Of a DNA stretch of 64,000 bases, positions 664-59,003 are shown piece after piece (position 1 is the first letter of the stretch; every line of letters begins with the position of its first letter). This DNA is from an uncultured Bacillota bacterium (lineage in GTDB: Bacteria > Bacillota > DTU025 > MWDF01), in the NCBI GenBank assembly GCA_963823655.1, contig CAWGMK010000013.1:266964-330963 (forward strand), written 5' to 3'. Below the pieces are notes generated by a model that was given only the letters and a program-made list of their open reading frames with translations, searched no databases and had not been told where the DNA came from. The position numbers and the translations under genes are program-made.

Positions 664-3600
664 GTGATTCCCTTGCAATATTGCCTTTACCCCCAGGCGG
701 GGGCCACCGACGCTAAAACCCTAATAGAGTGCATGACGGGCGCGCCAGCTCATGAGGAGCTGGCGCTTTGCCGCATTGACGGCATTTCGGTAAATTCCAC
801 AGACGGCGCGTGGACTATCAGGGCAGGCGGTCCCAACACTCTGATGGAAACCTGCGTTACCTCTCTTATAAAGGCACTTGACGCCTATTGCCCGGACGTA
901 AGAAGCGATGTATTCTTCATGCCGCTTCAGAAGGACGAGTGGATCAAGGCTTACTGGAAGTCCATAGCCAAAGAGGCATCGGCAGTATGCAAAGTGAACT
1001 TCGGCTCACTTCTATCCTGCGAGCCCTCCTGGAAGGATGTCGTCAGCCTCTCCGTGCCGAGTGAACCCCAGCAGGCCGCCTTTCAAAGGAAGAGCCTTGC
1101 CGGAATCATCCAGGCACTTATCGCCAAGCAGACGGGCGCAAGGCCTGAAGTAAAACTTGAGGTGCATGAGCAAAGGCGCGTCGATTACTCCGATGCGCTG
1201 CCGGTTAGCCCGGCCGAAACCGAAAAGGAGCACATTGTCAGCAGATCTTCTGCTGCCCCGCTAGTCGGCGTCAACATCAACATCAAATGTACAGCGATTG
1301 GCTTGTCGCTCGAACCTTCGGATTATGTGGCCCTCGAGGGGTTCATAGTAAAGCCCGAAACTTATACTTCAAGGCGGAACAACCCCGTTTTGACTTTCGT
1401 ACTGGCCGACGATTCCGGATCCGTCCTTTGCAAGTATTCGGCAAAGGACGGCGAAGTGCTTCCTGAGCTTGAAGGCACATACAAGGTTGCAGGCAAAATG
1501 GCTCTGGACGAGCGCAGACAGGATGCGGGGCCGGCCGAACCCATACTCATGGTCGAGGACATCGAAGAGGTCCTTGCCGAGAGTGCGGAGGTACTAAGGA
1601 TGTGCCAGAGGGTTGAGCTGCATTGTCACACTAAAATGAGCGCATTGGATTCGGTATGCGATCCGGAGCAGATCATTACCGCCGCGAAAGAAATGGGGCA
1701 TAAGTCGATAGCTGTCACTGACCACGGCGTAGTCTACGCCTTCCCGGCATTCTACCAGGCGGCAAAAAAGAGCGGAATAAAAGCGGTATTGGGCATGGAA
1801 GGCTATCTCAAACAGGGCGAAGGCGACGAGACCAGCCATTTTACCATTCTCGTTAAGGACAAGGCGGGGCTCACCAACCTTTACAGGATGGTTTCCAGCT
1901 CGCACCTTGACCATTTCAGGCGTCATCCCTTGGTGCCAAGGAAGCTTGCCTCAGAGCTGAGGAACGGCCTTTTGTATGGATCGGCTTGCGCGGGCGGCGA
2001 AATCTTCAGGATGGCGCTGAACGGCTCGGACGACAAGCAGATAGTCGATGCAATGGGTTTCTACGACTATATAGAGATAATGCCCGCCCAGAACAGCTCC
2101 TTTCTGCTTAGGGAGGGAAGGCTCCCGGACCTGGATGCGATAAGGGATATCAACAGGCGCATTGTCGCCCTGGCCAAGGAAGCAGGCAAGCCATTCATAG
2201 CAACCGGGGATGTCCATTACATCAGGCCCGCGGATGCCGTCTACAGGCAGGTCCTGCTCGCAGGCCAGGATTTCAAGGACGTTCAGGAGCAACCCCCTTT
2301 GCATTTGCGCACTACGGAGGAGATGCTCGACGAGTTCTCATACCTCGGGCAGGAGGATTGCCTTGAGGCCGTCGTACTTGCCCCCAACCGCATAGCCGAT
2401 TCCGTTGATTCTCTCAAGCCTGTCCCGGACGGGCTGTTCACCCCGGTCCTCAAAGGCGCAGAAGAGCAGGTAAGAGACAAGACTATTAGCAGGGCGGAGT
2501 CCCTCTATGGCTCGCCTTTGCCTGCGGAAGTGGATGCCAGGATCAAAAAGGAGCTTCACTCCATCATAGACAACGGATTCGCCAGCATTTACCTGGTTGC
2601 GATGAAGCTGGTCGCAAAATCCCTGGAAGACGGCTATCTTGTGGGCTCCAGAGGCTCGGTAGGATCCTCGCTTGTGGCGACTCTTCTTGGAATAACCGAG
2701 GTCAACCCCCTTGGACCGCATTACAGGTGCGGGTCCTGCAGTTTCTCGGATTTCGGCCCATTTCAAGCAAGTCACGGCTTCGACCTTCCTGAAAGGAAAT
2801 GCCCCCGCTGCGGCATGGCGCTCAAAAGGGACGGCCATGACATACCTTTCGAAGTGTTCCTCGGTTTCGAAGGAGACAAGGTGCCTGACATTGACCTCAA
2901 CTTCTCGGGCGAGTACCAGCCAAGGATCCACAAATTCAGCGAGGAGATGTTCGGCTCGGACAATGTCTTCAGGGCAGGCACCATAGGGACCATAGCCGAA
3001 AAGACGGCATACGGCTTCGTTAGGGCATATGAGGAGCATACAGGCGAGAAGGCGTCGAGAGCGCACTCCACCAGGCTTGCGGTGGGCGCAAGCGGCGTTA
3101 GAAGGACCACCGGGCAGCACCCGGGCGGCATCATTGTGCTGCCCGAGGGCTTGGATATCCATGACTTCACGCCGGTCCAGCATCCGGCCAATTCCAAGGA
3201 GAAGGGCATCATAACGACGCATTTCGAATACACTGCACTGCACGACAACCTGCTCAAGCTCGACCTTCTAGGGCATGACGACCCTACGATGATAAAGATG
3301 CTCGAGGATGTAACGGGGCGATCCTTCAGGGACATCCCTTACGATGATGAGGCTACCATGTCCATTTTCTCCGGCATCGAGGCCCTGGGGCTGGACGGTT
3401 CGAAGTATGGGCAGGAAGTAGGCACGATCGGCATACCCGAGTTCGGGACGAGATTCGTACGCGGCATGCTGTCGGACACAAGGCCCAGGACTTTCGACGA
3501 GCTGGTAAGGATCTCCGGGCTTTCGCATGGCACCAACGTCTGGCTTGATAATGCGCAGGAAGTGATCAGAAACGGTGACGGCACGCTCAAAGACGTGATA

Positions 3601-4302
3601 TCCGTCCGCGACGATATAATGAACTACCTGATATCAAAGGGCATGGGGCCGAAATACGCCTTCCAGATCATGGAGAAGGTGAGGAAGGGAAAAGGCCTTT
3701 CTACTGAAGACGAGAAGGCCATGAATGGCTTCGGAGTCCCTGCATGGTATTCGGATTCATGCAACAAGATCAAATACATGTTCCCCAAGGCGCATGCATG
3801 CGCATATGTAATGATGGCGTTTCGCATTGCTTACGCCAAAGTGCATATGCCCGCCGCCTTCTACAGCGCGTATCTGAGCATAAGGGCTACGGATTTCGAT
3901 CCTGCATTCGCCCGCATGGGGGTAAGGGAGCTTGAGAAGCTCATGCGCTCGATAGATTCGAATAAGGCCGCGACCCAGAAGGAGAAGGACACGGTCCCCA
4001 TACTTGAAGTAATTCGCGAGGCGCTGATGAGAGGCATCTCACTAAAGCCAGTTAACCTGGCGCTTTCCGACCCTTTGAAGTTCGTGGCCGAGGCAGATGG
4101 CATAAGAGCACCCCTTCTGTCGGTGGCAAGGCTCGGTCAGAAGCCTGCCCTTGCCATATCCGAAGCCCGCAATGATGCGCCGTTCGGCTCTGTCGAGGAG
4201 CTGAGGGAAAGGGCCAAGCTCGGCAAGGCACACATCGATGCGCTAAGGGAAGCGGGAGCTCTTGAGGGCTTACGCGAGAGCATGCATATGGAATTGTTCT
4301 AA
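664..4302 (+). CDS. polC: DNA polymerase III alpha subunit, PolC-type. N-domain, OB fold, PHP, Zn-finger and pol core are present, but no 3'-5' exonuclease insert is detectable
   Basis: Motifs VELHCHTKMSALDS (PHP), GHDDPTMIKMLEDVTG and RCGSCSFSDF..CPRCG (PolC zinc module) are present. The protein is 1212 aa; the PHP segments are contiguous with no DEDD motifs. Confidence 0.85.
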   Translation: MIPLQYCLYPQAGATDAKTLIECMTGAPAHEELALCRIDGISVNSTDGAWTIRAGGPNTLMETCVTSLIKALDAYCPDVRSDVFFMPLQKDEWIKAYWKSIAKEASAVCKVNFGSLLSCEPSWKDVVSLSVPSEPQQAAFQRKSLAGIIQALIAKQTGARPEVKLEVHEQRRVDYSDALPVSPAETEKEHIVSRSSAAPLVGVNINIKCTAIGLSLEPSDYVALEGFIVKPETYTSRRNNPVLTFVLADDSGSVLCKYSAKDGEVLPELEGTYKVAGKMALDERRQDAGPAEPILMVEDIEEVLAESAEVLRMCQRVELHCHTKMSALDSVCDPEQIITAAKEMGHKSIAVTDHGVVYAFPAFYQAAKKSGIKAVLGMEGYLKQGEGDETSHFTILVKDKAGLTNLYRMVSSSHLDHFRRHPLVPRKLASELRNGLLYGSACAGGEIFRMALNGSDDKQIVDAMGFYDYIEIMPAQNSSFLLREGRLPDLDAIRDINRRIVALAKEAGKPFIATGDVHYIRPADAVYRQVLLAGQDFKDVQEQPPLHLRTTEEMLDEFSYLGQEDCLEAVVLAPNRIADSVDSLKPVPDGLFTPVLKGAEEQVRDKTISRAESLYGSPLPAEVDARIKKELHSIIDNGFASIYLVAMKLVAKSLEDGYLVGSRGSVGSSLVATLLGITEVNPLGPHYRCGSCSFSDFGPFQASHGFDLPERKCPRCGMALKRDGHDIPFEVFLGFEGDKVPDIDLNFSGEYQPRIHKFSEEMFGSDNVFRAGTIGTIAEKTAYGFVRAYEEHTGEKASRAHSTRLAVGASGVRRTTGQHPGGIIVLPEGLDIHDFTPVQHPANSKEKGIITTHFEYTALHDNLLKLDLLGHDDPTMIKMLEDVTGRSFRDIPYDDEATMSIFSGIEALGLDGSKYGQEVGTIGIPEFGTRFVRGMLSDTRPRTFDELVRISGLSHGTNVWLDNAQEVIRNGDGTLKDVISVRDDIMNYLISKGMGPKYAFQIMEKVRKGKGLSTEDEKAMNGFGVPAWYSDSCNKIKYMFPKAHACAYVMMAFRIAYAKVHMPAAFYSAYLSIRATDFDPAFARMGVRELEKLMRSIDSNKAATQKEKDTVPILEVIREALMRGISLKPVNLALSDPLKFVAEADGIRAPLLSVARLGQKPALAISEARNDAPFGSVEELRERAKLGKAHIDALREAGALEGLRESMHMELF

Positions 4303-4437: not shown

Positions 4438-4897
4438 ATGGACGTCAGGGGAATAGAGTTGCAGGTGGCAAGGCTAACGGAGCCGATCGCCGAAAGTATG
4501 GGGCTCAGGTTGTTGGACGCGGAGCTTTCATACGAGATGTCGAATTGGTATCTGCGACTATATATAGAAAAAGATGGGGGAGTGGGGATAGAGGATTGCT
4601 CGAAGCTGAGCGTCGAAGTGGACGCAAAGCTGGAGGCGGAGGATCCCATCCCGCAGGCCTATATCCTGGAGGTAACATCGTCCGGAGAGAAGCCTCTCAG
4701 ATTCCCCGAGGAGTATACGAAGTTCGCAGGCAGGCACATCCAGGTTTCCACATACAAGCCCATTGAAGGGGCCAAGAAGCATGAGGGCTCCCTTGCTGGG
4801 GCTTATGGACGGAATAGTAAAGATTGACGTTGAGGGCAAGCAAGTTAGCATACCGCTGGAGATGGTGAGCAAAGCCAGGTTGGCTTTCAAGTATTAG
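4438..4897 (+). CDS. rimP: Ribosome maturation factor RimP (apparent frame change near 4795)
   Basis: The N-terminal part matches RimP. The conserved C-terminal segment DGIVKIDVEGKQVSIPLEMVSKARLAFKY is in the adjacent frame. Confidence 0.75.
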
Positions 4898-4903
4898 GGG
4901 GTC

Positions 4904-6016
4904 GTGGAGAAAATGAGCCAGCAGATTGAGGGCAAGGAGATCATTAGCGCAATAAATGAGATAGAGCGTTCCAGAGGCATTTCTAAGGACGTTCTAATTC
5001 CTGCCTTGGAGACGGCGCTCAGCGCCGCATACAGGAAGCACTACAGCGGCCTTCATGCGAATGTGAAGGTCACGATAGACTCCCAAAGCGGCGAGCTTAG
5101 GGTAGCCTCTTTGAAGTCCGTAGTCGAGGAAGTCGCGGACGCCAGATCCGAGCTCACCTTCGAACAGGCCCAGGAGTACGGCGAATTCCTGGTGGGCGAA
5201 ATTGTGGAGATCCCCGTGCCGATGGATGATTTCGGCACCGGCAGGATCGCAGCCCAGACCGCCAAACAGGTAATCGTGCAGAAGATCCGCGAGGCAGAGC
5301 GCGGCATGATATATTCCGAGTTCGCCGACAGGGAGGGCGACATAATTACGGGCATGGTCCAGCGCGTGGACCCTCGTAACGTAGTCGTGGAGATAAACCA
5401 CGTAGAAGCCTTCCTTCCCTCTCACGAGCAGATACCCAACGAAAGGTATATGGTCGGCTCAAGGATCAAATGCTACGTATTCGAGGTTAAGAAGCTCCAG
5501 AGGGGCTCCACAACGATACAGCTGTCCCGCACACACCCGAACCTCCTCAGGAAGCTTCTTGAGCTCGAGGTTCCGGAGATAAAAAGCGGTCTAGTAGAGA
5601 TCAAGGCCATATCCAGGGAGGCCGGTTCGAGGTCCAAGGTCGCTGTCTACTCTCACGATCCCAATGTGGATCCGGTCGGCGCATGCGTAGGGGCCAAGGG
5701 CGCCCGCATCCAGAGCATCGTAAACGAGCTGTCAAATGAGAAGATAGACATAATACCCTGGTCCGAGAACAACGCCGAGTACGTGGCGAACGCGCTAAGC
5801 CCGGCAAGGCCGACCAAGGTAATACCCGATATTCTCACGAAGGTTGCGACAGTTATAGTCCCGACTACGCAGCTGTCCCTTGCCATCGGCAGGGAAGGCC
5901 AGAACGCAAGGCTTGCGGCCAAGCTCACCGGCTGGAAAGTGGACATCAAGAGCGAGGCCCAGATGGAAGAGAGCGGAGACTACGGCTTCGTAGGAGCCGG
6001 CAAAGTCGATTTTTAG
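4904..6016 (+). CDS. nusA: Transcription termination/antitermination factor NusA
   Basis: 370-aa protein with NusA N-terminal, S1 and KH domains, in the conserved operon position. Confidence 0.9.
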   Translation: MEKMSQQIEGKEIISAINEIERSRGISKDVLIPALETALSAAYRKHYSGLHANVKVTIDSQSGELRVASLKSVVEEVADARSELTFEQAQEYGEFLVGEIVEIPVPMDDFGTGRIAAQTAKQVIVQKIREAERGMIYSEFADREGDIITGMVQRVDPRNVVVEINHVEAFLPSHEQIPNERYMVGSRIKCYVFEVKKLQRGSTTIQLSRTHPNLLRKLLELEVPEIKSGLVEIKAISREAGSRSKVAVYSHDPNVDPVGACVGAKGARIQSIVNELSNEKIDIIPWSENNAEYVANALSPARPTKVIPDILTKVATVIVPTTQLSLAIGREGQNARLAAKLTGWKVDIKSEAQMEESGDYGFVGAGKVDF

Positions 6017-6051
6017 GGAGGTTTGCGCTTGATTAAGGCAAGGAAGCAGCC

Positions 6052-6310
6052 CATGAGGACGTGCCTTGGTTGCGGCGGAGTATTCCCGAAGAAAGAACTT
6101 TTAAGGGTGGTGCGTACGCCCGGCGGCCAAGTCCTGATCGATAAATCAGGCAAGCTTGCCGGAAGAGGTGCATATATTTGCAACAGCACGGAGTGCCTTG
6201 ACAAGGCCGTGAAGGCCAAGAGGTTGGGGCGCTCACTTGAGACGGAAGTGGGACCCGATGTGATAGAACAACTCAGAGGGTCATTGGAGGTGCGCATTGG
6301 ATCTGACTGA
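6052..6310 (+). CDS. ylxR: YlxR/DUF448 RNA-binding protein
   Basis: MRTCLGCGGVFPKKELLRVV..GRGAYIC motif. RBS aaggaag lies 6 nt before the ATG at 6052. Confidence 0.8.
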
Positions 6311-6590
6311 AAACCTGGGCTTCATAGGCCTGGCCAGGAAGGCCGGCGCCCTGGAAATCGGGGCGGAGGCGGTCGAATGGGCGCTTTCAAAAGGAAAAGC
6401 AAAGATTTTGATACTTGCCTCAGATGCGGGCAGGAGCACGGTGGGCAAATATACGTCCATGTGCGAGGAGAAGGGCATCCCGATTTTAAAGGCGACCGAC
6501 AAGGAGTCCTTAGGAAGGATCCTTGGCAGGAGCCAGGTGGCAGTAGCAGCGGTTACAGAGAAGCATTTCGCAAAAAGGATGCTCAGTTGA
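6297..6590 (+). CDS. ylxQ: L7Ae-family ribosomal protein-like YlxQ
   Basis: GLARKAGALEIGAEAV..ILILASDA motif and conserved operon position. Confidence 0.8.
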   Translation: MDLTENLGFIGLARKAGALEIGAEAVEWALSKGKAKILILASDAGRSTVGKYTSMCEEKGIPILKATDKESLGRILGRSQVAVAAVTEKHFAKRMLS

Positions 6591-6620
6591 TTTTCGGATT
6601 TCTCTTGGAGGTGCAGATAT

Positions 6621-9600
6621 TTGGGTAAAGTCAGAGTTTTCGAGCTTTCGAAGTTGGTGAACATACCTAGCAAGGACCTCGTCGACCTCTTGAACAAGTT
6701 GGGCGTTCCTACGGCCAACCACATGAGCGCAATAGACGAGAACGCGGCGAAGTATGTGCTTAGGAAATACGGCCCCGATGCCGAAAAGGAGAAGGCAGCG
6801 CCTGCGAAGCAGAAGGCCAAGCAGAAGCCGCAGCCTAAACCGGCAGCATCCCAGGAGCCGCAGGCCGAGGCGAATATGTCCATAAGAGGCCCGCTTCCTA
6901 ACCAGTCGAGGCTTCAGAGAAATATACCACAGCCTCAGCAGAGGCCCCAGATCCAGGCTAAACCCCTTCCGGGCCAGGCGCCCAGGGCAGCGGCTCTACA
7001 GCTGGCAGCAGCAAGGCTGCAGCAGGCTCAGGAGGAGCAGAAAGCCCTTGAGGCAAGACTTGCCATAGAAAGGGCGGAGGCTGAGAAGCTGGCAGCCGAA
7101 AGAGCGGCAGTGGAGGCTGAAGAGGCGAGGAAGGCCGAAGCCGCACTGAAAGCCGAAGCCGAGCTCGAAGAGAAGAAGAAGGCAGCCGATGCCCGCCACG
7201 AGGCCAAGAAGGCAAAATCGCACAAGAAGGACGAGGAAGCCCCGGTACTTGAGGCTACTGAGCCCAAGGTTGAAACAAAGGAGCCTCAGGCAGAAGCAAC
7301 CGCACCAAAGCCGGAGCCCGCAGTAATCATCGCGGAAGAGGTTATTGAGAAGGCAGGCAGAGGCAGCACCAGTTGAGGAGCCCAAGGCACCGGTAGAACC
7401 GGCGCTTGTAATAAGCGCGCCTAAGCCGGCACCTCAGGTTCAGCCGCAACCTACGGCAGTCCCTTCGCCAAGGCCCCAGGTTGCAGCCCCTACGACGGGT
7501 GCTTACCCGCAGAGGCCGCAAGGAGTCGGTACCGGCACTGCAACTTACAGGAACCAGCCGGGAGTTGGCACAGGCACCGCAACTTACAGGAACCAGCCCG
7601 GCGTTGGCACAGGCACCGCCACTTACAGGAACCAGCCGGGCGTTGGCACAGGTACTGCAACTTACAGGAACCAGCCCGGAGTTGGCACCGGCACCGCAAC
7701 TTACAGAAACCAGCCCGGACAGGGTACCGGAACCGCTACGTACAGGCAGAATACCGGCACCGGCAATTTCGCCCCAAGGCCTCAGGGAACGGGAAACTTC
7801 GCACCCAGGCCTCAGGGCACAGGCACGTTCGGTCCGAGGCCGCAGGGAGGCACCGGCGGTTTTGCTCCCAGAAGGCCGCAGACGGGTGCGGGTATAACAG
7901 TCCCGCCGCCCGCAACAGAGGCGCCCATCAGCAAAGGCAAGGGCAAATCATGGGGCAATACTGGCAAAGAGAGGCGCTTTACTTCCGAGGATGACAATAT
8001 GCGCGGTCCTATCAAGGGCAAGGCCGCTCCGATAAAGAAGGGCAAGAAGGGCATGGGCCCCGATTCAATTCTCGACAAGAACCTCAGGAATGTGGACGTC
8101 GAGATGCTCGATGAGGACGGCAATGTAGTTCGCAAGTCGATCAAGAGAAGAGAGAAGGCCGTCAAAACTAAGAGGATCATCATCGAGCCTGTGATGACAG
8201 TAAGGGATCTGGCTTTGAAGATGGAAGTAACGCCGGGGGATCTCATAAGAAAGCTTATGTCTCTCGGGGTCATGTCCGGCATAAACCAGACTATAGACAG
8301 CGATACGGCCCAGATAGTCGCGTCGGAGTTCGGAATCGACACAGAGCTCAAATCGGAGGCTGATGTCAGGGAGACATCCCTTACCAAGCTTGAGGACAAG
8401 CCGGAGATGCTTAAAACCAGGCCCCCCGTGATAACGATAATGGGCCATGTCGACCACGGCAAGACCACTCTGCTGGACGCAATCAGGAAGACCAATGTGG
8501 CAGCAGGTGAAGCCGGCGGCATAACCCAGGCGATAGGCGCCTACCAGGTGGAACTGAATGGCAGGAAGATCACTTTCATAGATACACCGGGACATGCGGC
8601 CTTCACTTCGATGAGGGCAAGAGGCGCCCAGGTAACGGACATTGTCGTACTTGTAGTTGCAGCCGACGACGGCGTGATGCCGCAGACCAGGGAGGCCTAC
8701 AACCACGCCAGATCCGCAGGAGTGCCGATCATTGTCGCAGTAAACAAGATCGACAGGCCGAACGCCCAGCCGGACAGGGTGCTTCAGGAGCTCTCCGAAT
8801 TGGGCCTTATATCTGAGAAGTGGGGCGGAGATACGGTAACTGTCGAAGTCTCGGCCATTCAGAAGAGGGGCATCAGCGAACTGCTTGAAATGATCCTTCT
8901 TGTAGCCGATATGAAGGACCTGAAGGCGAACCCGGACAGGCCGGCCCAGGGAATAGTAATCGAGGCCGAGAACAAGGCCGGGCTGGGCCCGTTGGCCACC
9001 GTCATAATCAAGAACGGTACGCTCAAGAGGGGCCAATACTGCCTGGCAGGCGAGGTGTCCGGACGCGTAAGGGCTCTTATAAACGAGAAGGGCGAGAGGC
9101 TGGACGAAGCCGGCCCGTCCACACCGGTGCAAGTCGTTGGGCTTTCAGCGGTACCGCACGGAGGGGATCCCTTCGATGTGGTCACCGATGAGCGAGAGGC
9201 CAAGGCGGTCGCCCAGAGAAGGGCCGACATCAGAAGGTCAAGCGAGCTTGTCGAGGAGAAGAAGCCCATAACGCTTGAGGACTTCTTCGCTCAAAAGGAA
9301 TTCGGAGTCGTAAAGGACCTCAATATAATCCTGAAGGCGGACGTACAAGGCTCTGTGGAGGCCGTAAAGAAGTCGCTTGAGGAGCTCTCCAACGCCGAAG
9401 TCAGGGTAGTGGTCGTGCACAGCGGCGTAGGCGCAGTCTCCGAAAACGACGTCATGCTAGCATCTACTTCGGACTCGATAATCATCGCGTTCAATGTCAG
9501 GCCGGACAGCATAGCAGCCAAAGAAGCCGATGAAGTCGGCGTAGACATAAAGAGCTACAGGATAATCTACGAAGCAATCAATGACGTGGCTTTGGCAATG

Positions 9601-9939
9601 GAAGGCCTGCTCGAACCGGAGTACAAGGAGATAAGCCTCGGAAAGGCCGAAGTCAGGGCCGTGTTCAGCGTCCCGAAGGCCGGCAATATCGCAGGCTCCT
9701 ATGTAATATCGGGGAAGATCACCAGAAACTCCACCGCCAGGGTCGTGCGCGACGGCAAGATCATACACGAGGGCAAGGTAACATCCCTTAGAAGGTTCAA
9801 GGATGACGCCAAGGAAGTGCTCGAGGGCTTCGAGTGCGGAATCGGCTTCGAAAGCTTCAACGACATAAAAGAGGGCGACATAATCGAAGCTTTCGGCCAG
9901 GAGCTTGTTAAGAGGACTGTTCTTGTAGAGCAGAAGTGA
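6621..9939 (+). CDS. infB: Translation initiation factor IF-2. The reading frame changes at about 7345..7376 inside the low-complexity linker; the N-domain ORF is 6621..7376 and the G-domain/C-terminal ORF is 7345..9939
   Basis: IF-2 N-terminal domain ([20 protein letters not shown]), Ala/Glu/Lys-rich linker, G domain ([21 protein letters not shown]) and C-terminal domains. Confidence 0.85.
7522..7845 (+). repeat. Tandem coding repeats in the infB linker: about 5.9 copies of a 39-bp unit ([13 protein letters not shown]), then 3 copies of a 30-bp unit ([10 protein letters not shown]-like)
   Basis: Direct reading of 7522..7755 and 7756..7845. Copies differ mainly at third codon positions while the peptide is identical. 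Confidence 0.9.
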
Positions 9940-15993: not shown

Positions 15994-16041
15994 TAACAAG
16001 TACTTCAGCGCGAAAGGACCATGACAATACGGAGGTGCCTT

Positions 16042-17124
16042 ATGAGCAACGCAGGAAGAGGCCCGATTACCGTACTTGCTGTAAATCCGGGCTCGACTTC
16101 AACCAAGGCGGCCGTCTTCACTGACGGCAAGCTGTCGGAATCATTCAGCATAGAGCATGACAAAGCGGTCCTTGATTCGCTGGGGGCAATCAAGGACCAG
16201 CTCACATACAGACTGGATGGTATAAGAGCCGCCCTTGTCCACGACGCCGGATGCCTTGACGGGCTGAGCGCAGTAGTGGGAAGGGGCGGCCTTCTCAAAC
16301 CTATGGAGGGCGGGGTGTATGAGGTCGGCCTCAAAATGGTCGAAGATGCCCTGGAGCGCCCCATGGCGCAGCATGCGGCAAATCTCGGCTGTGCGCTTGC
16401 CTTCAACCTTGCAAAGGAGCACGGTGTGCCCGCCTATATAGTGGATGCCGTCTGTACGGACGAGTACGAGCCCGAAGCCCGCATATCGGGGCTTCCCGCG
16501 GTGCCCAGGATATCCTTCCTGCACGCCCTCTCTGCGAGGGCATCTGCCAGAAGGGCCGCCTCCGAGCTCGGCCTGGCCTTCGAAAAGGCGAGCTTCGTCG
16601 TAGCGCACATGGGAGGCGGGACCACAATCTGCTCGGTCAGGGGCGGAAGGCTAATCGATGCCAACAACTCAAATGACGAAGGACCTTTCACACCTGAAAG
16701 GACCGGCACTCTGCCGGCTGGCTCGGTTGTGGATATTTGTTATTCGGGCAAGTACACTAAGCAGCAGCTAAGAGACATATTCCTTCGCAAAAGCGGCCTG
16801 TTCGGATATACCGGCACCAATGACGCCAGGGAGATAATCAAAAGGATTGAGGCCGGCGACGAGAAGGCGAGGGAAGTCATGTCAGCCATGGCATACCAGA
16901 CAGCAAAAGAGATAGGCGCCTATGCCGCGGTCCTTTCCGGGAAACAGGACGCGGTCGTGCTGACCGGAGGCCTTGCTAACTGGTCCATGTTCGTCCAGGA
17001 GCTTACAGGATACATTTCATTTTTAGGCAAAATCCTTGTGTATCCGGGAGAGAATGAGATGCAGGCGCTTGGCGAAGGCGCAACGCTTGCCGTAATGGGC
17101 AAAGTGCCCGTGAAGAAATACTGA
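16042..17124 (+). CDS. buk: Butyrate (branched-chain fatty acid) kinase
   Basis: VLAVNPGSTSTKAAVF N-terminus and acetate/butyrate kinase family fold; RBS acggaggtg. Confidence 0.85.
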   Translation: MSNAGRGPITVLAVNPGSTSTKAAVFTDGKLSESFSIEHDKAVLDSLGAIKDQLTYRLDGIRAALVHDAGCLDGLSAVVGRGGLLKPMEGGVYEVGLKMVEDALERPMAQHAANLGCALAFNLAKEHGVPAYIVDAVCTDEYEPEARISGLPAVPRISFLHALSARASARRAASELGLAFEKASFVVAHMGGGTTICSVRGGRLIDANNSNDEGPFTPERTGTLPAGSVVDICYSGKYTKQQLRDIFLRKSGLFGYTGTNDAREIIKRIEAGDEKAREVMSAMAYQTAKEIGAYAAVLSGKQDAVVLTGGLANWSMFVQELTGYISFLGKILVYPGENEMQALGEGATLAVMGKVPVKKY

Positions 17125-17140: not shown

Positions 17141-18048
17141 ATGCTGAATACCTTCCAGCAGATTATCGATGAGGCAAAAAGGGGCGGCAAACAGCGAATA
17201 GCGATAGCCGCCGCAAATGACGCCGATGTCCTGGAGGCTGTCAAAATGGCGATGGAAATCGGGCTTGCCGATTTCACGCTGTTCGGGGACCTGGCCTCCA
17301 TTAGGCAGACTGGCAAAGGAAGTCGGGCTGAGCCTTAAAGATGTAGAGATAGTCGACGAACCAATCCTTACAACCGCCGCGCTCAAAGCCGTGCAGCATG
17401 TCAGCTCCGGCAAGGCAGGAACCCTTATGAAGGGCCTAATAGGCACGTCCGATTTTCTAAGGGCAGTGCTCGACAAGGAAGTGGGCCTCCGGACAGGAAA
17501 CCTCCTATCCCATGTGGCCGTCATCAAATCGTGCCAGGTTCGACAGGTTCTTCTACCTTACCGACGGGGGCATGAACATATCGCCCACGCTCGAGCAGAA
17601 GGTACAGATAATCGGAAACGCCGTTAAAGTGGCCCATGCGCTGGGCAATCCGGAACCAAAGGTGGCCTGCATATCAGCGGTGGAGATTGTAAATCCCGAC
17701 ATTGCGGCCACGATGGATGCCGCACTTCTCGCGAAGATGAGCGACAGGAAACAGATCAAAGGCTGCATAGTCGACGGCCCGTTCGGCCTGGATAATGCGG
17801 TTTCAGCTGAAGCGGCCAAACATAAGGGGGTAACAGGCCCTGTGGCCGGCCAGGCTGAGATTCTGATGTGCCCCGACATTAACACGGGAAATGTGATCTA
17901 CAAGGCCCTGAGCTACTTCGCCGACATCGAATGCGGCGCAATGATCGCGGGGGCAAGGGCCCCGATAGTGCTCACCAGCAGGGCCGATTCGCCCAGGACC
18001 AAGCTTTTATCGATGGCGACTGCAGCAGCTGTTGCCCGCAACTCCTGA
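17141..18048 (+). pseudogene. ptb: Phosphate butyryltransferase, interrupted by two frame changes (about 17300 and 17535)
   Basis: Three consecutive ORFs in different frames each match successive parts of Ptb (RIAIAAANDADVLEAV.. / ..SSGKAGTLMKGLIGTSDFLRAVL..LSHVAV / ..FYLTDGGMNISPTLEQK..). Confidence 0.7.
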
Positions 18049-18070
18049 AAGTAAATCAAGGAGGTTCAAA

Positions 18071-19138
18071 ATGAGGCTCCTTATAATTAACCCCGGCTCG
18101 ACTTCAACAAAGGTTGCCCTTTTCGAAGGCCTGAGCCAGACGGCGGCCGAGACTCTGAGGCATTCCCCGGAGCAGCTTTCCCCATACCCAACCATAGCCG
18201 ACCAGCTCGATTTCAGGGCTGCCGAGGTCAGCGATTTCCTCATGGCCCAGGGCAACCCTCCTTTGGACGCAGTAATGGGAAGAGGCGGTCTGCTCCCACC
18301 AATGCCAAGCGGTGTCTATGAGGTTGATGATGCCCTCATGGAGAAGCTGCTGCATCCTTCAGGCCAGCATGCATCCAACCTCGGGGGACTGATCGCAAAG
18401 AAGATCGCCGCCGAGAGGGGCATCCGTGCTTTCATTGCGGACAGCGTAACCACGGATGAGCTCTGCCCTCTGGCGAGATATTCGGGAAGCCCCCTAATTC
18501 AGAGGGTCAGCATCTTCCATGCGCTCAACCAGAAATCCATAGCAAGGCACGCCGCAAAGGACATGGGCAGGCCTTATGAGGAACTGAACCTGATAGTCTG
18601 CCACTTAGGAGGCGGCGTAAGCGTCGGAGCCCATCACAATGGAAGGGTAGTAGACGTAAACAACGCGCTGGACGGCGACGGGCCGTTAGCCCCCGAAAGG
18701 GCAGGAACCTTACCTTTAAACGGCCTTTTAGACCTCTGCTATTCCGGGCAGTACACGCACTCCCAGGCAAGGAAGCTGCTAACTGGCGGCGGGGGTTTCG
18801 TAGCCCATTTGAGCACCAATTCGGGGACCAAGCTCGAAGAGATGGTTGCCGCGGGGGATAAGAAGGCTGAGCTCATCGAAAAAGCCTTCGCGTACACCCT
18901 GGCCAAAGAAGTGGGCCGCATGGCCGCCGTCTTGAAAGGTAAAGTCGACGCAATCATAATTACCGGCGGACTGGCCCATTCCGAGAGGATATGTTCTATG
19001 ATAAAAGAGATGGTGGGAGCCTTCGGGGAAGTGAAATGCTACCCCGGGGAGGATGAGATGAAAGCCTTGGCCGAGGCCGGCGAAAGGGTGCTCGGCTCTG
19101 CCCGCCAAATGCCACCGAAAGGAGGTCAGCCTTGTTGA
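18071..19138 (+). CDS. buk2: Butyrate kinase paralog
   Basis: MRLLIINPGSTSTKVALF. RBS aaggagg; second acetate/butyrate-kinase family member. Confidence 0.85.
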   Translation: MRLLIINPGSTSTKVALFEGLSQTAAETLRHSPEQLSPYPTIADQLDFRAAEVSDFLMAQGNPPLDAVMGRGGLLPPMPSGVYEVDDALMEKLLHPSGQHASNLGGLIAKKIAAERGIRAFIADSVTTDELCPLARYSGSPLIQRVSIFHALNQKSIARHAAKDMGRPYEELNLIVCHLGGGVSVGAHHNGRVVDVNNALDGDGPLAPERAGTLPLNGLLDLCYSGQYTHSQARKLLTGGGGFVAHLSTNSGTKLEEMVAAGDKKAELIEKAFAYTLAKEVGRMAAVLKGKVDAIIITGGLAHSERICSMIKEMVGAFGEVKCYPGEDEMKALAEAGERVLGSARQMPPKGGQPC

Positions 19139-33415: not shown

Positions 33416-34059
33416 AGCTGTTCATCGACACGGCCAATTTAGAGGAGATCCTCACTGTCGACAGTATGGGCATCATCTGCGGCGTAACTACTAACCCCAC
33501 GCTTATAGCGCGCGAAGGCCATGACCCCGACACAATGGCAATGAAGATAGCCGAGTCGGTCAGTGGCCCCGTCAGCTATGAGGCCGTATCCTTCGATGCC
33601 GAGGGCATAGTCAGGGAGGGCCGGGCGATAGCTGCCATGGCTCCCAATATGGTCGTCAAGGTCCCGCTCACAATAGAGGGCCTTAAGGCAATAAAGACCT
33701 TGTCGCAGTACGGCATCAGGACAAACGCCACCCTCATTTTCAATGAGAACCAGGCATTGCTTGCGGCACGCGCAGGGGCCACATATGTAAGCCTTTTCAT
33801 CGGCAGGCTTGTCGACAAGGGAGTCGACGCCATGGCCATCGTACGCAATACCAGGAGCATATTAGATATGAACGACCTGGATGCGGAGATTATTGCCGCA
33901 TCCATCAGAAATACGGAACAGGTGACGCAGTGCGCGCTTGCCGGCTCGCACATTGCCACTGTGCCCTACAAGATCCTTATGGAAATGGTCGAGCACCCCA
34001 TGACTACGGCTGGCATAGAGAAGTTCATGGATGACTGGAAGAAGGTCTTCGGCAAGTAG
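33412..34059 (+). CDS. tal: Transaldolase / fructose-6-phosphate aldolase family protein (short form)
   Basis: MKLFIDTANLEEI..GVTTNPTLIA motif. Confidence 0.85.
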   Translation: MKLFIDTANLEEILTVDSMGIICGVTTNPTLIAREGHDPDTMAMKIAESVSGPVSYEAVSFDAEGIVREGRAIAAMAPNMVVKVPLTIEGLKAIKTLSQYGIRTNATLIFNENQALLAARAGATYVSLFIGRLVDKGVDAMAIVRNTRSILDMNDLDAEIIAASIRNTEQVTQCALAGSHIATVPYKILMEMVEHPMTTAGIEKFMDDWKKVFGK

Positions 34060-42691: not shown

Positions 42692-42736
42692 GTTTACGTA
42701 CATATTATTATGTCAACTTGGCGGTTATAGAATAAT

Positions 42737-42811
42737 GGCAGGGGAGACAGGACTTGAACCCGCAACCCTCGGTTTTGGAGACCGATGCTCTGCCAGTTGA
42801 GCTACTCCCCT
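42737..42811 (-). tRNA. tRNA-Trp (anticodon CCA)
   Basis: The reverse complement folds as a cloverleaf: AGGGGAG acceptor, anticodon loop cuCCAaa, T-arm GGGTTCAAGTCC, 3' CCA encoded. Confidence 0.85.
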
Positions 42812-42904
42812 GCGATGGCATATTTGCTTGCAATATGTATTCTACCTAGTATAAGTCTTAGTGTCAATTCGATAACTCATTATAAGTGCATGGAGGTAGA
42901 CAAA

Positions 42905-45436: not shown

Positions 45437-45437
45437 G

Positions 45438-48134: not shown

Positions 48135-48797
48135 TTACGGCCTCATGAATATGTTCCAGAGCCGGGCCGTTGATACAAGATCCATGATGTTATGGCGAAT
48201 AATCGGAAGGAGCAAATCGTAATTGCGGCTATTTACATATTCCCAATAGACCCTTGGAATTTTGCCGCCGGGGATATCGTCTTCCCTATTCCAGTCGGAG
48301 AGGCCCAGGATGTTTCGTTCAAGAGACTGCAAAGAGCAACTTGCAAGTTTATCCTTGTATCTCTTCCTCGCGGGTTTAAGAAGATCCACAGAGACGATGT
48401 CCGGAAGAGTGATGTTGCAGTAGCTCATCCTTTTCTCGATATAAGGGATGTCGAAGCTGTCGCCGTTGAAAGTCATCACTGCCGAGCGGTCCTTGACATG
48501 CGAGAGAAGCTGGTAGAGAACTGCCGGCTCCTCGGAGGGAGTGCGCGCCAGCAGCTGCGTGCACGATAGGCCGTCTTCCCGGGCGCTAAGAAGCCCTATT
48601 AGGAAAAGAGGCTGGTCTATGCCGGAAAGGCCCGTGGTTTCAATGTCCAGGAAATTGATGCCGAAGTAGTCCTCATATCTGATTTCTTTCACACAGGGAA
48701 GGGAGTTCTCGATGATGCTGCAGATGCCGAAGTCATTTCGCACGTCCTCGCCAACCAGCCTGGCCCCTGATACCAAATGTTCGTAGTCAGTCATCAT
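48135..48797 (-). CDS. RNase H-like 3'-5' exonuclease domain protein (YprB-like)
   Basis: FLDIETTGLSGIDQPLFLIGLL motif (DEDD-type Exo I) in a ~220-aa protein. Confidence 0.65.
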   Translation of the reverse strand: MMTDYEHLVSGARLVGEDVRNDFGICSIIENSLPCVKEIRYEDYFGINFLDIETTGLSGIDQPLFLIGLLSAREDGLSCTQLLARTPSEEPAVLYQLLSHVKDRSAVMTFNGDSFDIPYIEKRMSYCNITLPDIVSVDLLKPARKRYKDKLASCSLQSLERNILGLSDWNREDDIPGGKIPRVYWEYVNSRNYDLLLPIIRHNIMDLVSTARLWNIFMRP

Positions 48798-55006: not shown

Positions 55007-57639
55007 TTACGGCTTCTGGATCTCCTCGGCCTCAAGCGCCCTTTTCATCTCGAAAACCAGCTCCAGAGCATCTCTTGGGCTCAACTCCTCGGGTTCAGCG
55101 TCCCTTAAAAGTGCGAGCGCTGCACTCTCCGGCCTCACAACTACCTGGTCCTCCACCTCATCCGGAAGCTCGCTCCAGCCGAAGAGCCTCATCTGGTGCC
55201 CGCCCCTGTCGTAGACCTCCTCAAGCTGCTTTAATATCTGGTTGGCCCTTCTAACTACGTCTTTGGGCAGCCCTGCCATCTTCGCCACGTTCAGCCCGTA
55301 GCTCTTGTCCGTGCCGCCTCTTTGCAGCCGGTACAGGAACACGACCTCGCCCGGCTTCTCGGCCACGCTCACATGGTAGTTCCTCGCGAAGGGAAGCCTC
55401 TCTTCAAGGGCCGCAAGCTCGTGGTAATGCGTGGTGAACAGGCAGCGCGCCCTGGTTACATCGTGCAGGTGTTCCGCAACCGCCCAGGCGAGCGCCATTC
55501 CATCATATGTTGAAGTCCCCCTGCCCAGCTCATCGACCATTACAAGGCTTCTCTCGCCCCCGGTGTTGAGTATCTCCGCCACTTCCAGCAGCTCCACCAT
55601 GAAAGTGCTCTTGCCGCCGGAGATGTCGTCATATGAGCCTGCCCTGTAATAGATGCGGTCGGCGATGCCGATTGTAGCCGATGAGCAGGGCACGAAGGAG
55701 CCGGCCTGCGCCATAAGCTGAATTATGCCGGTGGTCGCCAGTATTGTGGATTTGCCGGCCATGTTCGGGCCGGTCAATATCAAAAGCCTTGCGTCGTCGT
55801 GCTTGAGCTCAATGTCATTCTCGACGAACCTTCCCGCGGGCATCGAAGCCTCCATTACGGGATGCCTGGCCGAATAAAGCAGGGTATCCAGGCCGTCCGT
55901 TACTTCGGGACGGGTCCATCTGCGACTTGTTGCCGCCCCAGCGAAGGATTGCAGCACGTCCGCCTCTGCCGCCGCAGCCGCGTCAGCCATGATTGCATCG
56001 ATAAATCCGGATGCTTTTGCGCAAAGCCCCCTGAAAATCTCGGCCTCCAGCTTTACCTGCTTCTCCTCGGCGCCTAGCACCTTGGTTTCAATGCTCTTCA
56101 GCTCCTCAGTGAAATACCTCTCGGAGCCGGCAAAGTCTGCTTCCTTATGAAATCCGAAGGCACGCTGCCGATATTGGATTTGCTGACCTCGAAGTAATAT
56201 CCGAATACCCCGTTGAAGCCGATTCGCAGGTTTTTTATCCCCGAACGCTCCCGCTCCCGAGCCTCTAAAGTAGCCAGCCATCCCCTGCCTCCAGCAGCAG
56301 CGTCCCTCAGCTCGTCGACTTCGGCATCGTACCCCTTCCTGATGTAGCCGCCCGAACTCAAGTCTGCGGGCAGCTCGTCGGCCAGCGCCGCCGAAATCTC
56401 CTCGGAAAGCGGCTTCAAAGGATCTATCGCCTTGCCAAGTGAAGACAGCCTTGCCGATTTGGCATGTGAAGCAAGCGATGCCTTGAGCCTTCCTGCGGCG
56501 TCAAGCGACTTGCCCAAAGCTGCGAGATCCCTTGGCATTGCATTTCCTATCGCAAGCTTGGAACCCAGCCTCTCCATGTCCTGGATGCCTGAAAGCGAGT
56601 CTTTTATGCCGTCGGCCAGCCTCCTTGAGGCCATGAGCTCCTCTATCGAGTCCTGCCTTTCACCTATGCCCGCAATGTCCAGCAGAGGGGCCTCCAGCCA
56701 GGACTTGAGCATCCTTGCGCCCATCTTTGTGAGAGTCGTGTCCAGCACGTCCAATAGCCCCGCGCCTTTTCCAAGCGCGCGCTCGCTCCCGAAGACCGCC
56801 AGGTTCCTCCAGGACCCTCTATCGATGTGCATGAACGACGAAAGCCTGTATGCGCCCAGAGAACTGATATGCTCCAGGCCTGATTTCTGTGTCTGCTTGA
56901 GATAGGCGAGCAGCGCTCCGGCGGCAGATGCGCCCAAAGGCATGCCGTCCAGGCCGTACCCCTCAAGCCCCACCGCGCCGAAATGCCCCGAAAGCAGCCG
57001 GGCCGCTGCTTTGTGCTCGAACTCGCGCTCGGGCCTTGGCGTCTGTATGACCAGTGAGCCAGCACTCGCTATCCAGCCGGCAATCCCTGCGCCAAGCGCA
57101 GCTCCGGATGGCAGAAGTATCTCGCTGGCAGACAGCCTCTCCAGCTCCTGCACGGCCTTTACTTCGAAATCCTTGCCTTCGGCTTGCGTCGCTCTGAACT
57201 CGCCCGTTGAGACATCGCAGTAGGCAATGCCCACCCCGTCGTCTGAGGGAAATATGGATGCCATATAGTTGTTCGAACCGCCGTCGCCTTCCAGCACTCC
57301 TGGGCTTACCAGCCTGATAATGTCCCTTTTTACCAGCCCTTTGGCGACCTTCGGGTCTTCAAGCTGCTCCGCTATTGCCACCCTGTAGCCCTTCTTGACC
57401 AGCTGCGGCAGGTACTCGTCCAGCGCATGATGGGGGACGCCGCACATCGGCATCCTGTTGCCGGTGCCCACTTCCCTGCCGGTAAGGTAAAGCCCAAGCT
57501 CGCGTGAGGCGATCTCCGCATCTTCGTTGAAGAACTCATAGAAGTCGCCCAGGCGAATCATTAAAAGGGCCTCCGGATAGCGGCCCTTCAGCTCGTTATA
57601 CTGCTCCATCATGGGCGTCAGGCCCCCGGTCCTGGCCAT
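55007..57639 (-). CDS. mutS: DNA mismatch repair protein MutS (frame change at about 56100..56280)
   Basis: The N-terminal mismatch-binding/connector/core part (TPMMEQYNELKGRYPEALLMIRLGDFYEFF) is in the 56098..57732 ORF. The ATPase/HTH C-terminal part (GPNMAGKST) is in the 55007..56281 ORF of another frame. Confidence 0.8.
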
Positions 57640-57656
57640 TTCTCGCCCCTTCCTTC

Positions 57657-59003
57657 CTAGACCCTTGCGCCGTGCAGCACGAATGTCCTTGCCGATTCGA
57701 TTTTCACGCGGACCAGGTCCCCCCGCACACAAGAGCCGTCATCCGGCCAGTGCACCATCTTGTTGGTCCTGGATCTTCCGGCCATCGCAGACGCATCCCT
57801 GTCGGACTTGCCCTCTACAAGGACCTCCTGTATGCTGCCGACAAGCGCGCGGTTCACCCTTAACGATATGCTGTTTTGCAGCTCTATCAGCCTTTTTATC
57901 CTGTCCTTCTTCTCTTCCTCCGTTACCTGGGCCTCCATCGCAGCCGCCCTTGTCCCCTCCCTTGGGGAGTAAACGAAGGTGAATGCCGCATCGAAACTTG
58001 CCTTTTCAAGCACGTCGAGCGTATCCTGGAAGTCTCTTTCGGTCTCGCCGGGGAAGCCTACCATCACATCAGAGGTTATGGCACATCCCGGCACCGCCAG
58101 CCTGATCCTCGCCAGCAAGTCCAGGTACTGGGCTGATGTATAGCCCCTGTTCATCTGCGCAAGTATCCTGTCGGAACCCGCCTGAAGCGGCAGGTGGTAC
58201 TGCTCGCAGAGTTTGGGAAGCGTGGAGATCGCGTCTATCATCCGCTCGTCGGCAAACCTCGGGTGCGATGTCGTAAACCTGATCCTCAAGGGGTCCGGCA
58301 GCTGCTTGTCCAAGAGCCTTAACAGCGACGGGAAATCGGGTGGCTCGCCACCGTTATCTGCGGCAAGCCCTTTTCCGTATGCGTTCACGTTCTGCCCGAG
58401 CAGCGTTATCTCCCTGACGCCGGATTTCGCGGCATCCATGCACTCCGCAAGGATTTCTGCCGGCAGCCTGCTTCGCTCGCGCCCGCGCACATAGGGCACT
58501 ATGCAGTATGTGCAGAAATTGTCGCAGCCATAAGTAATATTGACGAAAGCCTTAAGATCATCCTTCCTCAGCACGGGAAGCTGCTCTACGACTTCCTGCG
58601 CCGCATCCCAGATCTCAATGACCCTCTCGCCGCCATCCAGCCTTGCGAGCAGCTCCGGCAGCCTGTGGATGTTGTGGGTGCCAAACGCAAGGTCCAGCCA
58701 TGAAAGCTTACCGCCAAGTTCGGCCTTCACCCACTCCTCCTGCACCATGCAGCCGCATATGCCGACTAGAAGCCCGGGGCGCGACTTCTTAAGCCGCTTC
58801 GCCTCACCGAGGTTTCCTATCGCCCTGTCCTCTGCATTGCCCCTTACGCAGCAAGTCATGTAGAGAATGAGGTCCGCCTTGGATTCATCTTCGGTCATGC
58901 AGTAGCCGGCCGACGCCAAATAGCCCGCAACGGTCTCTGAATCCCTCTCGTTCATCTGGCAGCCGTAGACGGTAAGCTTGGCCAGCTTCCCAACAAATCC
59001 CAT
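57657..59003 (-). CDS. miaB: tRNA-2-methylthio-N6-dimethylallyladenosine synthase MiaB (radical SAM methylthiotransferase)
   Basis: MTTase N-domain and radical SAM CxxxCxxC (CDNFCTYC); TRAM-like C-terminus. Confidence 0.9.
   Translation of the reverse strand: MGFVGKLAKLTVYGCQMNERDSETVAGYLASAGYCMTEDESKADLILYMTCCVRGNAEDRAIGNLGEAKRLKKSRPGLLVGICGCMVQEEWVKAELGGKLSWLDLAFGTHNIHRLPELLARLDGGERVIEIWDAAQEVVEQLPVLRKDDLKAFVNITYGCDNFCTYCIVPYVRGRERSRLPAEILAECMDAAKSGVREITLLGQNVNAYGKGLAADNGGEPPDFPSLLRLLDKQLPDPLRIRFTTSHPRFADERMIDAISTLPKLCEQYHLPLQAGSDRILAQMNRGYTSAQYLDLLARIRLAVPGCAITSDVMVGFPGETERDFQDTLDVLEKASFDAAFTFVYSPREGTRAAAMEAQVTEEEKKDRIKRLIELQNSISLRVNRALVGSIQEVLVEGKSDRDASAMAGRSRTNKMVHWPDDGSCVRGDLVRVKIESARTFVLHGARV

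Follow-up and report, generated by a model that had tools for sequence, protein, structure and literature searches.

A PolC without the inserted DnaQ-type exonuclease and with a complete PHP metal site in an uncultured Bacillota lineage

The DNA analysed here, a 64-kb stretch from an uncultured Bacillota bacterium (hereafter the window), carries an open reading frame at 664..4302 on the forward strand, which starts with GTG and encodes a PolC-type DNA polymerase III alpha subunit of 1212 amino acids. Downstream of it lie rimP, nusA, ylxR, ylxQ and infB, a succession that marks the orthologous polC locus, and the genes of the window together with those of an independently assembled relative (L081) place the polymerase in the canonical proS-polC-rimP-nusA-infB position. 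No dnaE gene occurs in the 64-kb window. The features of the locus, with the evidence for each in brackets, are the following.

664..4302, forward strand: polC in its exonuclease-less form, 1212 aa (profiles NF001688 and TIGR01405, alignment to 3f2b)
664..1311, forward strand: divergent N-terminal region, residues 1-216, presumed PolC N-terminal domain, NTD (weak match to PF11490, PolC N-terminus II, at 96-160, E=0.097)
1315..1593, forward strand: OB-fold domain, residues 218-310 (alignment to the OB with which the 3f2b construct begins)
1609..1800, forward strand: N-terminal half of the PHP domain, residues 316-379, with H320, H322, D329, H354 and E379 (Pfam PHP, 318-460, E=4.4e-32)
1801..1836, forward strand: 12-residue linker GYLKQGEGDETS, residues 380-391, at the canonical exonuclease site (alignment)
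1837..2343, forward strand: C-terminal half of the PHP domain, residues 392-560, with H392, C442, D516 and H518 (ligands mapped by alignment)
2470..3714, forward strand: polymerase core (palm, thumb, fingers), residues 603-1017 (PF07733, 1.2e-56; PF17657, 1.6e-23)
2722..2814, forward strand: PolC-specific Cys4 zinc module, C689, C692 ... C713, C716 (alignment to the CxxC...CxxC of Geobacillus PolC)
4033..4275, forward strand: tandem helix-hairpin-helix (HhH) DNA-binding module, residues 1124-1204 (PF14579, HHH_6, 2.1e-10)
4285..4299, forward strand: putative C-terminal clamp-binding pentapeptide HMELF (QLxLF in other PolCs)
4438..9939, forward strand: rimP, nusA, ylxR, ylxQ (L7Ae-like) and infB, downstream of polC (open reading frames; same order in L081)

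The product passes both PolC equivalog profiles, with 1310 bits against a cut-off of 873 for NF001688 and 1238 bits against 1043 for TIGR01405; each profile matches in two blocks, residues 389-1212 of the query corresponding to profile positions 613-1444. The Pfam matches are PHP (318-460), DNA_pol3_alpha, the finger domain and HHH_6, and the alignment with Geobacillus PolC (3f2b) extends over 995 aa at 47% identity (E=1.5e-296). The order of the domains is likewise that of PolC, with the OB fold N-terminal to PHP and the HhH module at the C-terminus, the opposite of the arrangement in DnaE. Both catalytic aspartate motifs of the polymerase core, PDIDLNF (740-747) and LGHDDPT (868-875), are conserved in the alignment, and the Cys4 module is conserved across 121 PolCs; the NTD, by contrast, is poorly conserved among PolCs in general (PMC3919608). 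An AlphaFold2 (AF2) model, from which the divergent residues 1-216 were left out, reached a pLDDT of 90.6, shows the OB domain as a five-strand beta barrel (model residues 15-98) and superposes on the delta-Exo PolC crystal structures 3f2c and 3f2b with TM-scores of 0.93 and 0.94, respectively. A sequence-only reading of this DNA had delimited the same 1212-aa frame at exactly these positions, had quoted the peptides LGMEGYLKQGEGDETSHFTILVKD.. and RCGSCSF...CPRCG, both of which are present in the translation, and had described a PolC with OB fold, contiguous PHP domain, zinc module and polymerase core, a description that the profiles, the alignments to 3f2b and 9qpc and the Cys4 motif bear out.

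In canonical PolCs, such as those of B. subtilis and G. kaustophilus and the full-length protein 9qpc, with which the query shares the NTD-OB-PHP-Pol3-HhH layout, the Cys4 module, the catalytic aspartates, a putative clamp-binding tail and the gene neighbourhood, a DEDDh exonuclease of ~211 aa is inserted into the PHP domain; this domain is absent from the query. In an alignment of 121 sequences, only 12 residues (380-391) separate the PHP ligands E379 and H392, whereas about 211 residues (198-225) lie between the same ligands in 90 canonical PolCs. Similarly, residues 216-381 and 390-1212 of the query align with 260-427 and 639-1471 of the full-length PolC 9qpc, so that about 210 reference residues are skipped. 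The product matched neither RNase_T/PF00929 nor any other exonuclease family of Pfam, even at E<=10. A custom exonuclease HMM, built from the 90 canonical PolC inserts and run with all filters off (--max), returned no match to it at E<=10 either, which rules out a hidden or degenerate exonuclease within the frame. The reading frame continues across the junction DNA (1798-1839), no repeats were found to flank this DNA, and in the AF2 model the junction forms a well-ordered hairpin with a tight turn between two strands (pLDDT 86-95). Profiles, alignments and the in-frame junction thus identify the length deficit of ~200 aa as a clean and real absence of the DnaQ-like domain. The earlier claim that the inserted DEDD exonuclease is missing therefore stands, and the alignment and HMM comparison proposed with it, carried out here on 9qpc, the PolC equivalogs and Pfam, gave a skipped exonuclease segment and no DEDD profile match. 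The DnaQ/DEDDh insertion in PHP, regarded as a hallmark of PolC, is accordingly lacking in this protein.

The PHP domain itself retains the entire nine-ligand signature HHDHEHCDH (H320, H322, D329, H354, E379, H392, C442, D516 and H518), which is also complete in every full-length PolC with a missing or dead exonuclease that was examined (>90 sequences). By the published definition, a PHP domain counts as 'active' when it carries the signature HHDHEH[C/H]DH (PMC12926913). PHP exonuclease activity is seen in enzymes that have all nine residues but not in Geobacillus PolC, in which one of them is mutated (PMC5636811). Indeed, the signature is incomplete in Geobacillus and several Bacilli PolCs, where the eighth ligand, D516 in the query, is replaced by Asn. 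The nine ligands are, however, equally conserved in clostridial PolCs that carry the exonuclease, and their conservation is therefore not specific to exonuclease loss; it could also reflect a structural or other role, and a structural role has been proposed for the E. coli PHP domain (PMC3666897). We found no demonstration in the literature of exonuclease activity for the PHP domain of any PolC, nor experimental work on a natural exonuclease-less PolC.

Two kinds of known enzyme resemble the query at this site. The delta-N delta-Exo construct of Geobacillus PolC (3f2b/3f2c) likewise has a short linker in place of the exonuclease, and the query aligns to it end-to-end, with no gap there; the construct is man-made, whereas the query is its natural equivalent with essentially the same fold. 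This construct, described by Evans et al. 2008, reportedly keeps polymerase activity. M. tuberculosis DnaE1 and Thermus Pol III alpha share with the query the full set of nine residues at the trinuclear-metal site and the shortness of the loop at the DnaQ site. This loop has 12 aa in the query; its length is 9 in E. coli, 18 in Taq and 29 in Mtb. The two enzymes differ from the query in being of the DnaE type, with about 20% identity and a TM-score around 0.65.

PolCs of this kind are not new, contrary to what the sequence-only reading implied: they were described in 2014 by Timinskas et al. (NAR 2014; PMC3919608), who put them at about 6% of PolC and found them restricted to Clostridia and Negativicutes, and exclusively in hosts that pair PolC with DnaE1 rather than DnaE3. 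By its sequence the query is a member of this subclass, with which it shares the PolC domain order without DnaQ insertion, the conserved PHP metal site and a Clostridia-like Bacillota host. Among 80 related species-representative genomes, 34 encode an exonuclease-less PolC, including that of Acidaminococcus hominis, and further examples were found among the proteins of Sporomusa rhizae, Syntrophothermus and Peptococcaceae; the architecture of those from A. hominis, S. rhizae and others equals that of the query. What is added here is one more uncultured lineage, of roughly 55% GC, whose PolC is 44-50% identical to those of the other exonuclease-less groups and whose relatives are all Bacillota/Clostridia MAGs. 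For the query's own PolC, an exact look-up in public assemblies gave no record. Specific to the query clade (the query and its homologues P0001-P0010) within the subclass are the 12-aa linker and a predicted clamp-binding motif in which the Leu-Phe is kept and His takes the place of the conserved Gln of QLxLF. Since the predicted motif HMELF is atypical, the role of the enzyme in the replisome may differ from that of model PolCs.

In one related lineage the exonuclease insert is kept with all five DEDDh residues replaced, and deleted forms are nested inside this lineage, which speaks for DnaQ being dispensable where PHP is intact. These dead-exonuclease relatives show a loss in two steps, first inactivation and then deletion, that took place several times independently. 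Several losses are also favoured over a single ancestral one, which we rejected, by the bootstrap support of 0/100 for monophyly of the exonuclease-less forms in an NJ tree whose deep nodes are weak.

These data lead us to regard the query as the orthologous chromosomal polC of the known exonuclease-less subclass, with the PHP domain as its likely intrinsic 3'-5' proofreader, a reading we consider probable. The DnaQ-type exonuclease normally inserted in the PHP loop has been lost from an otherwise intact polymerase, a short DnaE-like loop has taken the place of the former domain, and the trinuclear metal centre has kept its nine ligands; PHP would edit as it does in the DnaE1 of Mycobacterium and the Pol III alpha of Thermus. 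It is because all nine ligands are intact that PHP proofreading is the best-supported mechanism, and from the same residues we infer a site that is catalytically active and performs the proofreading. The choice posed in the sequence-only reading, between a separate DnaQ-like protein and reduced fidelity, overlooks a PHP domain with the complete HHDHEHCDH. A more far-reaching version, which we advance tentatively and hold to be somewhat short of probable, is that PolC in this lineage may have reverted to the ancestral PHP proofreader as its only editing activity, the DnaQ domain having been inactivated and then deleted and the clamp motif remodelled from Gln to His in the query clade.

Three other explanations have to be weighed against PHP proofreading by a genuine chromosomal PolC. 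That a segment of ~600 bp was lost by assembly collapse, or that polC, like mutS, is in decay, might be suspected from the indel errors of the contig, which bears frameshifts, at about 280, 4780, 7355 and 56135, in GT2 (a glycosyltransferase gene next to polC), rimP, infB and mutS. Yet the polC frame is unbroken over 3.6 kb, its junction lacks repeats, the catalytic motifs are all intact and the fold was modelled confidently. Moreover, the independent ENA assembly L081 (protein P0001, 92% identity) encodes the same 1212-aa gene with an identical linker, in the order proS-GT2-polC-rimP-nusA-ylxR-ylxQ-infB and with its genes intact; nine further homologues from ENA, NCBI and Logan (P0002-P0010, 63-66% identity) have a 12-aa junction too, and some exonuclease-less sequences are present on 12-36 contigs. 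Recurrence of the same junction in independent assemblies means that the absence is neither an indel error, as had been argued from the sequence, nor an assembly error, and an artefact or pseudogene is already effectively refuted, with a probability close to nil. The break in mutS, which is due to a single missing base, had been linked to fidelity. However, the essential infB, rimP and GT2 are split as well, and the relative at 92% identity has all three unbroken. The simplest reading of the mutS break is therefore that it, too, is probably an assembly indel, one among many, and not a sign of relaxed fidelity.

Proofreading could instead be supplied in trans, by a separate DnaQ-like (epsilon-type) or other DEDD exonuclease docked on the exonuclease-less PolC. 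Such an arrangement would follow the E. coli and proteobacterial paradigm, in which epsilon docks on DnaE; standalone DnaQs are known from mycobacteria and Treponema, and bacterial proteomes average >3 DnaQ homologues (PMC12926913). Six-frame open reading frames from the window and from 80 loci, each with +/-10 kb, were scanned with the exonuclease HMM. No DnaQ/RNase_T-type gene emerged, either in the 64-kb window or in the +/-10 kb around polC at any of the 34 exonuclease-less loci, and the only candidate was a frame at 48135..48797 on the reverse strand of the window. This reading frame does encode a standalone exonuclease of the DEDD superfamily (PF13482, RNase_H_2, 1.8e-34), with a weak match to a Pol III epsilon model, but it is of the YprB type, not a DnaQ, and lies 44 kb from polC on the opposite strand, unlinked to replication genes. 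YprB-type exonucleases are tied to DNA repair (MrfB). In addition, the PHP site is uniformly intact in exonuclease-less PolCs, whereas PHP has typically decayed in lineages that depend on DnaQ (PMC12926913), and proofreading in trans appears quite improbable to us. Slightly better placed, though still unlikely, is the possibility that this PolC is a lower-fidelity or auxiliary enzyme and that a co-resident DnaE1 with its own active PHP carries out accurate bulk replication, so that an uncompensated loss of the PolC exonuclease would be tolerated. This possibility was raised by Timinskas et al. for PolC+DnaE1 systems (PMC3919608), and the departure of the clamp motif of the query clade from the QLxLF consensus would allow for an altered use of the clamp. 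It is opposed by the position of the gene in the conserved housekeeping polC locus, by evident purifying selection (catalytic, Zn and PHP motifs are invariant from 92% to 63% identity) and by the nine invariant PHP ligands, for which an enzyme that does not proofread would have no need.

Taken alone, the query matters little, and exonuclease-less proteins are already annotated as PolC by public pipelines. It does offer a clean natural example that a PolC with a complete PHP metal site can dispense with its DnaQ domain. A 2026 survey holds that, of the proofreaders in Pol III alpha subunits, DnaQ is not the inactivated one, a statement which the dead-exonuclease relatives qualify. If PHP is indeed the sole proofreader, natural exonuclease-less PolCs would be the first PolCs with a working PHP exonuclease, and would provide a ready system for asking why Clostridia keep up to three replicative proofreaders. 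The case also has some relevance to antibiotics that target PolC and to the estimation of mutation rates in anaerobes of the gut and of digesters.

Elsewhere in the window, a skew switch was observed at about 44 kb; the one candidate dif site for it, a weak 16-mer match at 31516-31531 with flanks unlike dif, was unconvincing. Finally, the ispH-rpsA fusion and the gene order are Firmicutes-like.

The polC gene of the window encodes a polymerase without the DnaQ-type (DEDDh) 3'-5' exonuclease that canonical PolCs carry as an insertion in the PHP domain. The open reading frame, its length and the peptides quoted in the sequence-only reading were all recovered as described there, with the following features:

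664..4302, + strand: polC, GTG start, 1212 aa
1801-1836, + strand: linker GYLKQGEGDETS, residues 380-391, 12 residues between the PHP ligands E379 and H392
4285-4299, + strand: C-terminal clamp-binding pentapeptide HMELF (consensus QLxLF)

The protein exceeds the cut-offs of two NCBIfam PolC equivalogs (NF001688, 1310 vs. 873 bits; TIGR01405, 1238 vs. 1043 bits), and its Pfam matches comprise PHP (318-460), the Pol III alpha NTPase domain, the finger domain and HHH_6, with neither RNase_T (PF00929) nor any other exonuclease family detected at E<=10. The equivalog match is split into two blocks (profile 613-1444 corresponds to residues 389-1212), and the full-length PolC 9qpc likewise aligns in two pieces (260-427 with 216-381, and 639-1471 with 390-1212), so that about 210 reference residues have no counterpart. 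By contrast, 3f2b, a construct of Geobacillus PolC engineered to lack the exonuclease, aligns without a break. When our PolC is aligned by MAFFT with 120 homologues from the database, 12 residues lie between E379 and H392, as opposed to 198-225 in 90 canonical PolCs with intact DEDDh, and a profile built from these 90 inserts, run without any heuristic filter, found no match in our PolC. PDIDLNF and LGHDDPT, the catalytic motifs, are intact, as is the Cys4 Zn module. The profile search for exonuclease motifs thus detected nothing, and the absence of the domain is confirmed.

Loss of a segment of about 600 bp by artefact and decay of polC into a pseudogene are both effectively excluded, and the absence is cleanly in frame, as had been claimed, rather than the product of indels or misassembly. 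The closest relative, P0001 (92% identity), has equal length and an identical linker and was assembled independently (L081, an ENA contig of 130 kb), where the gene order rpsB-tsf-pyrH-frr-uppS-cdsA-dxr-rseP-ispG-proS-GT2-polC-rimP-nusA-ylxR-ylxQ-infB-rbfA-nrnA-truB-ribF-rpsO-pnp is that of the canonical Firmicutes polC locus. The 12-residue linker is common to the homologues P0002-P0010 (63-66% identity; ENA, NCBI and Logan assemblies), no repeats were found flanking the junction DNA, and comparison with P0001 shows a single reading frame from end to end. In an AlphaFold2 model of residues 205-1212 (mean pLDDT 90.6, pTM 0.83) the junction is predicted as a short turn joining two strands (block pLDDT 86-95). 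Superposition of this model gives TM 0.93/0.94 with the crystal structures of delta-Exo Geobacillus PolC, whereas with full-length 9qpc only the target-normalised TM drops, to 0.78.

PolCs devoid of the exonuclease are already known (Timinskas et al., PMC3919608), so that ours adds one member to a described group. In that study all but one came from Clostridia and Negativicutes, groups in which PolC is paired with a DnaE1, and the exonuclease-less forms made up 16% of the PolCs of PolC+DnaE1 systems (Table 2). In agreement with it, a linker of 10-25 aa replaces the exonuclease in 34 of the 80 species-representative genomes closest in similarity to the query. Among the 34 are the cultured Acidaminococcus hominis and MAGs placed in Lentihominibacter, Oscillospiraceae, Desulfitobacteriaceae and other taxa. 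Further cases, from Sporomusa rhizae, Syntrophothermus, Peptococcaceae and Sporomusaceae, came from a second search of proteins, and at NCBI proteins of this kind already bear the name 'PolC-type DNA polymerase III'.

The sequence-only reading concluded that a separate DnaQ must proofread or fidelity would be reduced. Its observation of a PolC without exonuclease stands; this dilemma is not supported, since it overlooks the PHP domain, the second potential proofreader of C-family polymerases (PMC5636811). In M. tuberculosis DnaE1 a trinuclear zinc centre held by nine residues is the replicative exonuclease; activity is present where all nine occur (Mtb, Taq and Tth DnaE, PolX) and absent from Geobacillus PolC, where one residue is mutated, and from E. 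coli Pol III alpha, where five are altered. The DnaQ domain of PolC sits in a loop beside this metal site, and the loop at its insertion point has 9 residues in E. coli, 18 in Taq and 29 in Mtb (PMC5636811). Our PolC fits exactly the signature HHDHEH[C/H]DH, the criterion for an 'active' PHP in a 2026 survey from the Venclovas group (PMC12926913), with H320, H322, D329, H354, E379, H392, C442, D516 and H518, while Geobacillus and several Bacilli PolCs have Asn in place of D516. The signature is complete in every full-length exonuclease-less PolC examined (28 in the MAFFT alignment, 33 in the census, 33 in the second search). As caveats, the nine ligands are equally conserved in exonuclease-bearing clostridial PolCs, and the papers found contain no demonstrated exonuclease activity of a PolC PHP domain. 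Given the complete ligand set and the activity of nine-residue enzymes, we judge proofreading by the PHP domain the best-supported mechanism, and on these sequence grounds somewhat favour the view that this domain would be active in our PolC. That PHP could be the sole proofreader of a PolC is a published hypothesis and no discovery from the window.

Proofreading in trans by a separate DnaQ-like protein seems unlikely: none is encoded in the 64-kb window, nor within 10 kb on either side of polC in 34 exonuclease-less loci. A single gene of the window belongs to the DEDD superfamily, and no other gene there is exonuclease-like; it lies 44 kb from polC, and nothing in the window links it to PolC:

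48135..48797, - strand: standalone YprB-type RNase_H_2 exonuclease, 220 aa (PF13482, 1.8e-34), weakly similar to PolB-exo and Pol III epsilon models
48794-49276 and 49258-50019: two following ORFs without Pfam match

Alternatively, as put forward by Timinskas et al. (PMC3919608), DnaE1 may carry out the bulk of accurate replication, with PolC in an accessory role.

How the exonuclease may vanish under a conserved PHP domain can be seen in relatives. Monophyly of all exonuclease-less PolCs received 0/100 bootstrap support in an NJ tree, which points to recurrent loss; the clade of our PolC and P0001-P0010 received 100/100. Five homologues (P0156, P0017, P0015, P0154, P0155) keep a 198-203-aa insert that is still DnaQ-like (92 down to 16 bits with the insert profile), with all five DEDDh positions changed (VKGDE, VKGEE, AGGAE, AAGGE, APGKQ). 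Nearest to them by identity (81-91% to P0015) are P0013, P0020 and P0157, with linkers of 27-39 aa; in the bootstrapped tree, P0013 and P0020 branch inside the group of five. Sisters of this lineage, including a Capillibacterium MAG, have an active DEDDh, and the PHP signature is 9/9 throughout the inactivated and deleted forms. The lineage is a stepwise series of inactivation followed by deletion, and goes against the 2026 survey, according to which inactivation in Pol III alpha subunits does not fall on the DnaQ proofreader (PMC12926913).

The clamp-binding tails of our clade (HMELF, HLELF, HQELF, HMPLF) have His for the conserved Gln, a replacement found in no other PolC examined, with or without exonuclease.

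The interrupted mutS, which the sequence-only reading set beside a possible reduction of fidelity, is probably not biological:

56098..57732, - strand: mutS part with domains I-IV
55007..56281, - strand: mutS part with domain V
about 280 (275-290): frameshift in the GT2 gene
about 4780 (4760-4800): frameshift in rimP
about 7355 (7352-7357): frameshift in essential infB

One base is missing at about 56135 ('...ACTTTG^CCGGCTCCGAGAGG...'), where an extra G would restore the reading TLAGSERYFTEELK; mutL is intact. GT2, rimP and infB are unbroken in L081, in which different genes (e.g. proS, rseP) are split. At about one per 4 kb, the frameshifts in housekeeping genes are dense enough to suggest that a long-read-type assembly left indel errors.

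Further observations concern other parts of the window. In infB (about 7516-7765, + strand) the N-terminal part of IF2 is repetitive, with about five 13-residue units in tandem and then a second repeat type of 10 letters. The maximum of the cumulative GC skew is at about 44 kb, where coding orientation flips from + to - (zone about 42700-48000, which holds four tRNA genes, for Trp, Pro, Leu and Pro). A replication terminus, an inversion breakpoint or a chimeric join could each fit this pattern, and a dif-motif search gave a single unconvincing match (31516-31531). Two other loci are:

34059-36107, + strand: 682-aa ORF joining ispH (LytB) and ribosomal protein S1 domains
16021-17124 and 18032-19138, + strand: paralogous ORFs of about 367 aa (PF00871, E about 1e-19 to 1e-22)

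The ispH-S1 fusion is typical of Clostridia and fits the taxonomic placement. The paralogues match the C-terminal half alone of the acetate/butyrate kinase family and have the gene for the alpha subunit of a 2-oxoacid:ferredoxin oxidoreductase downstream of them.
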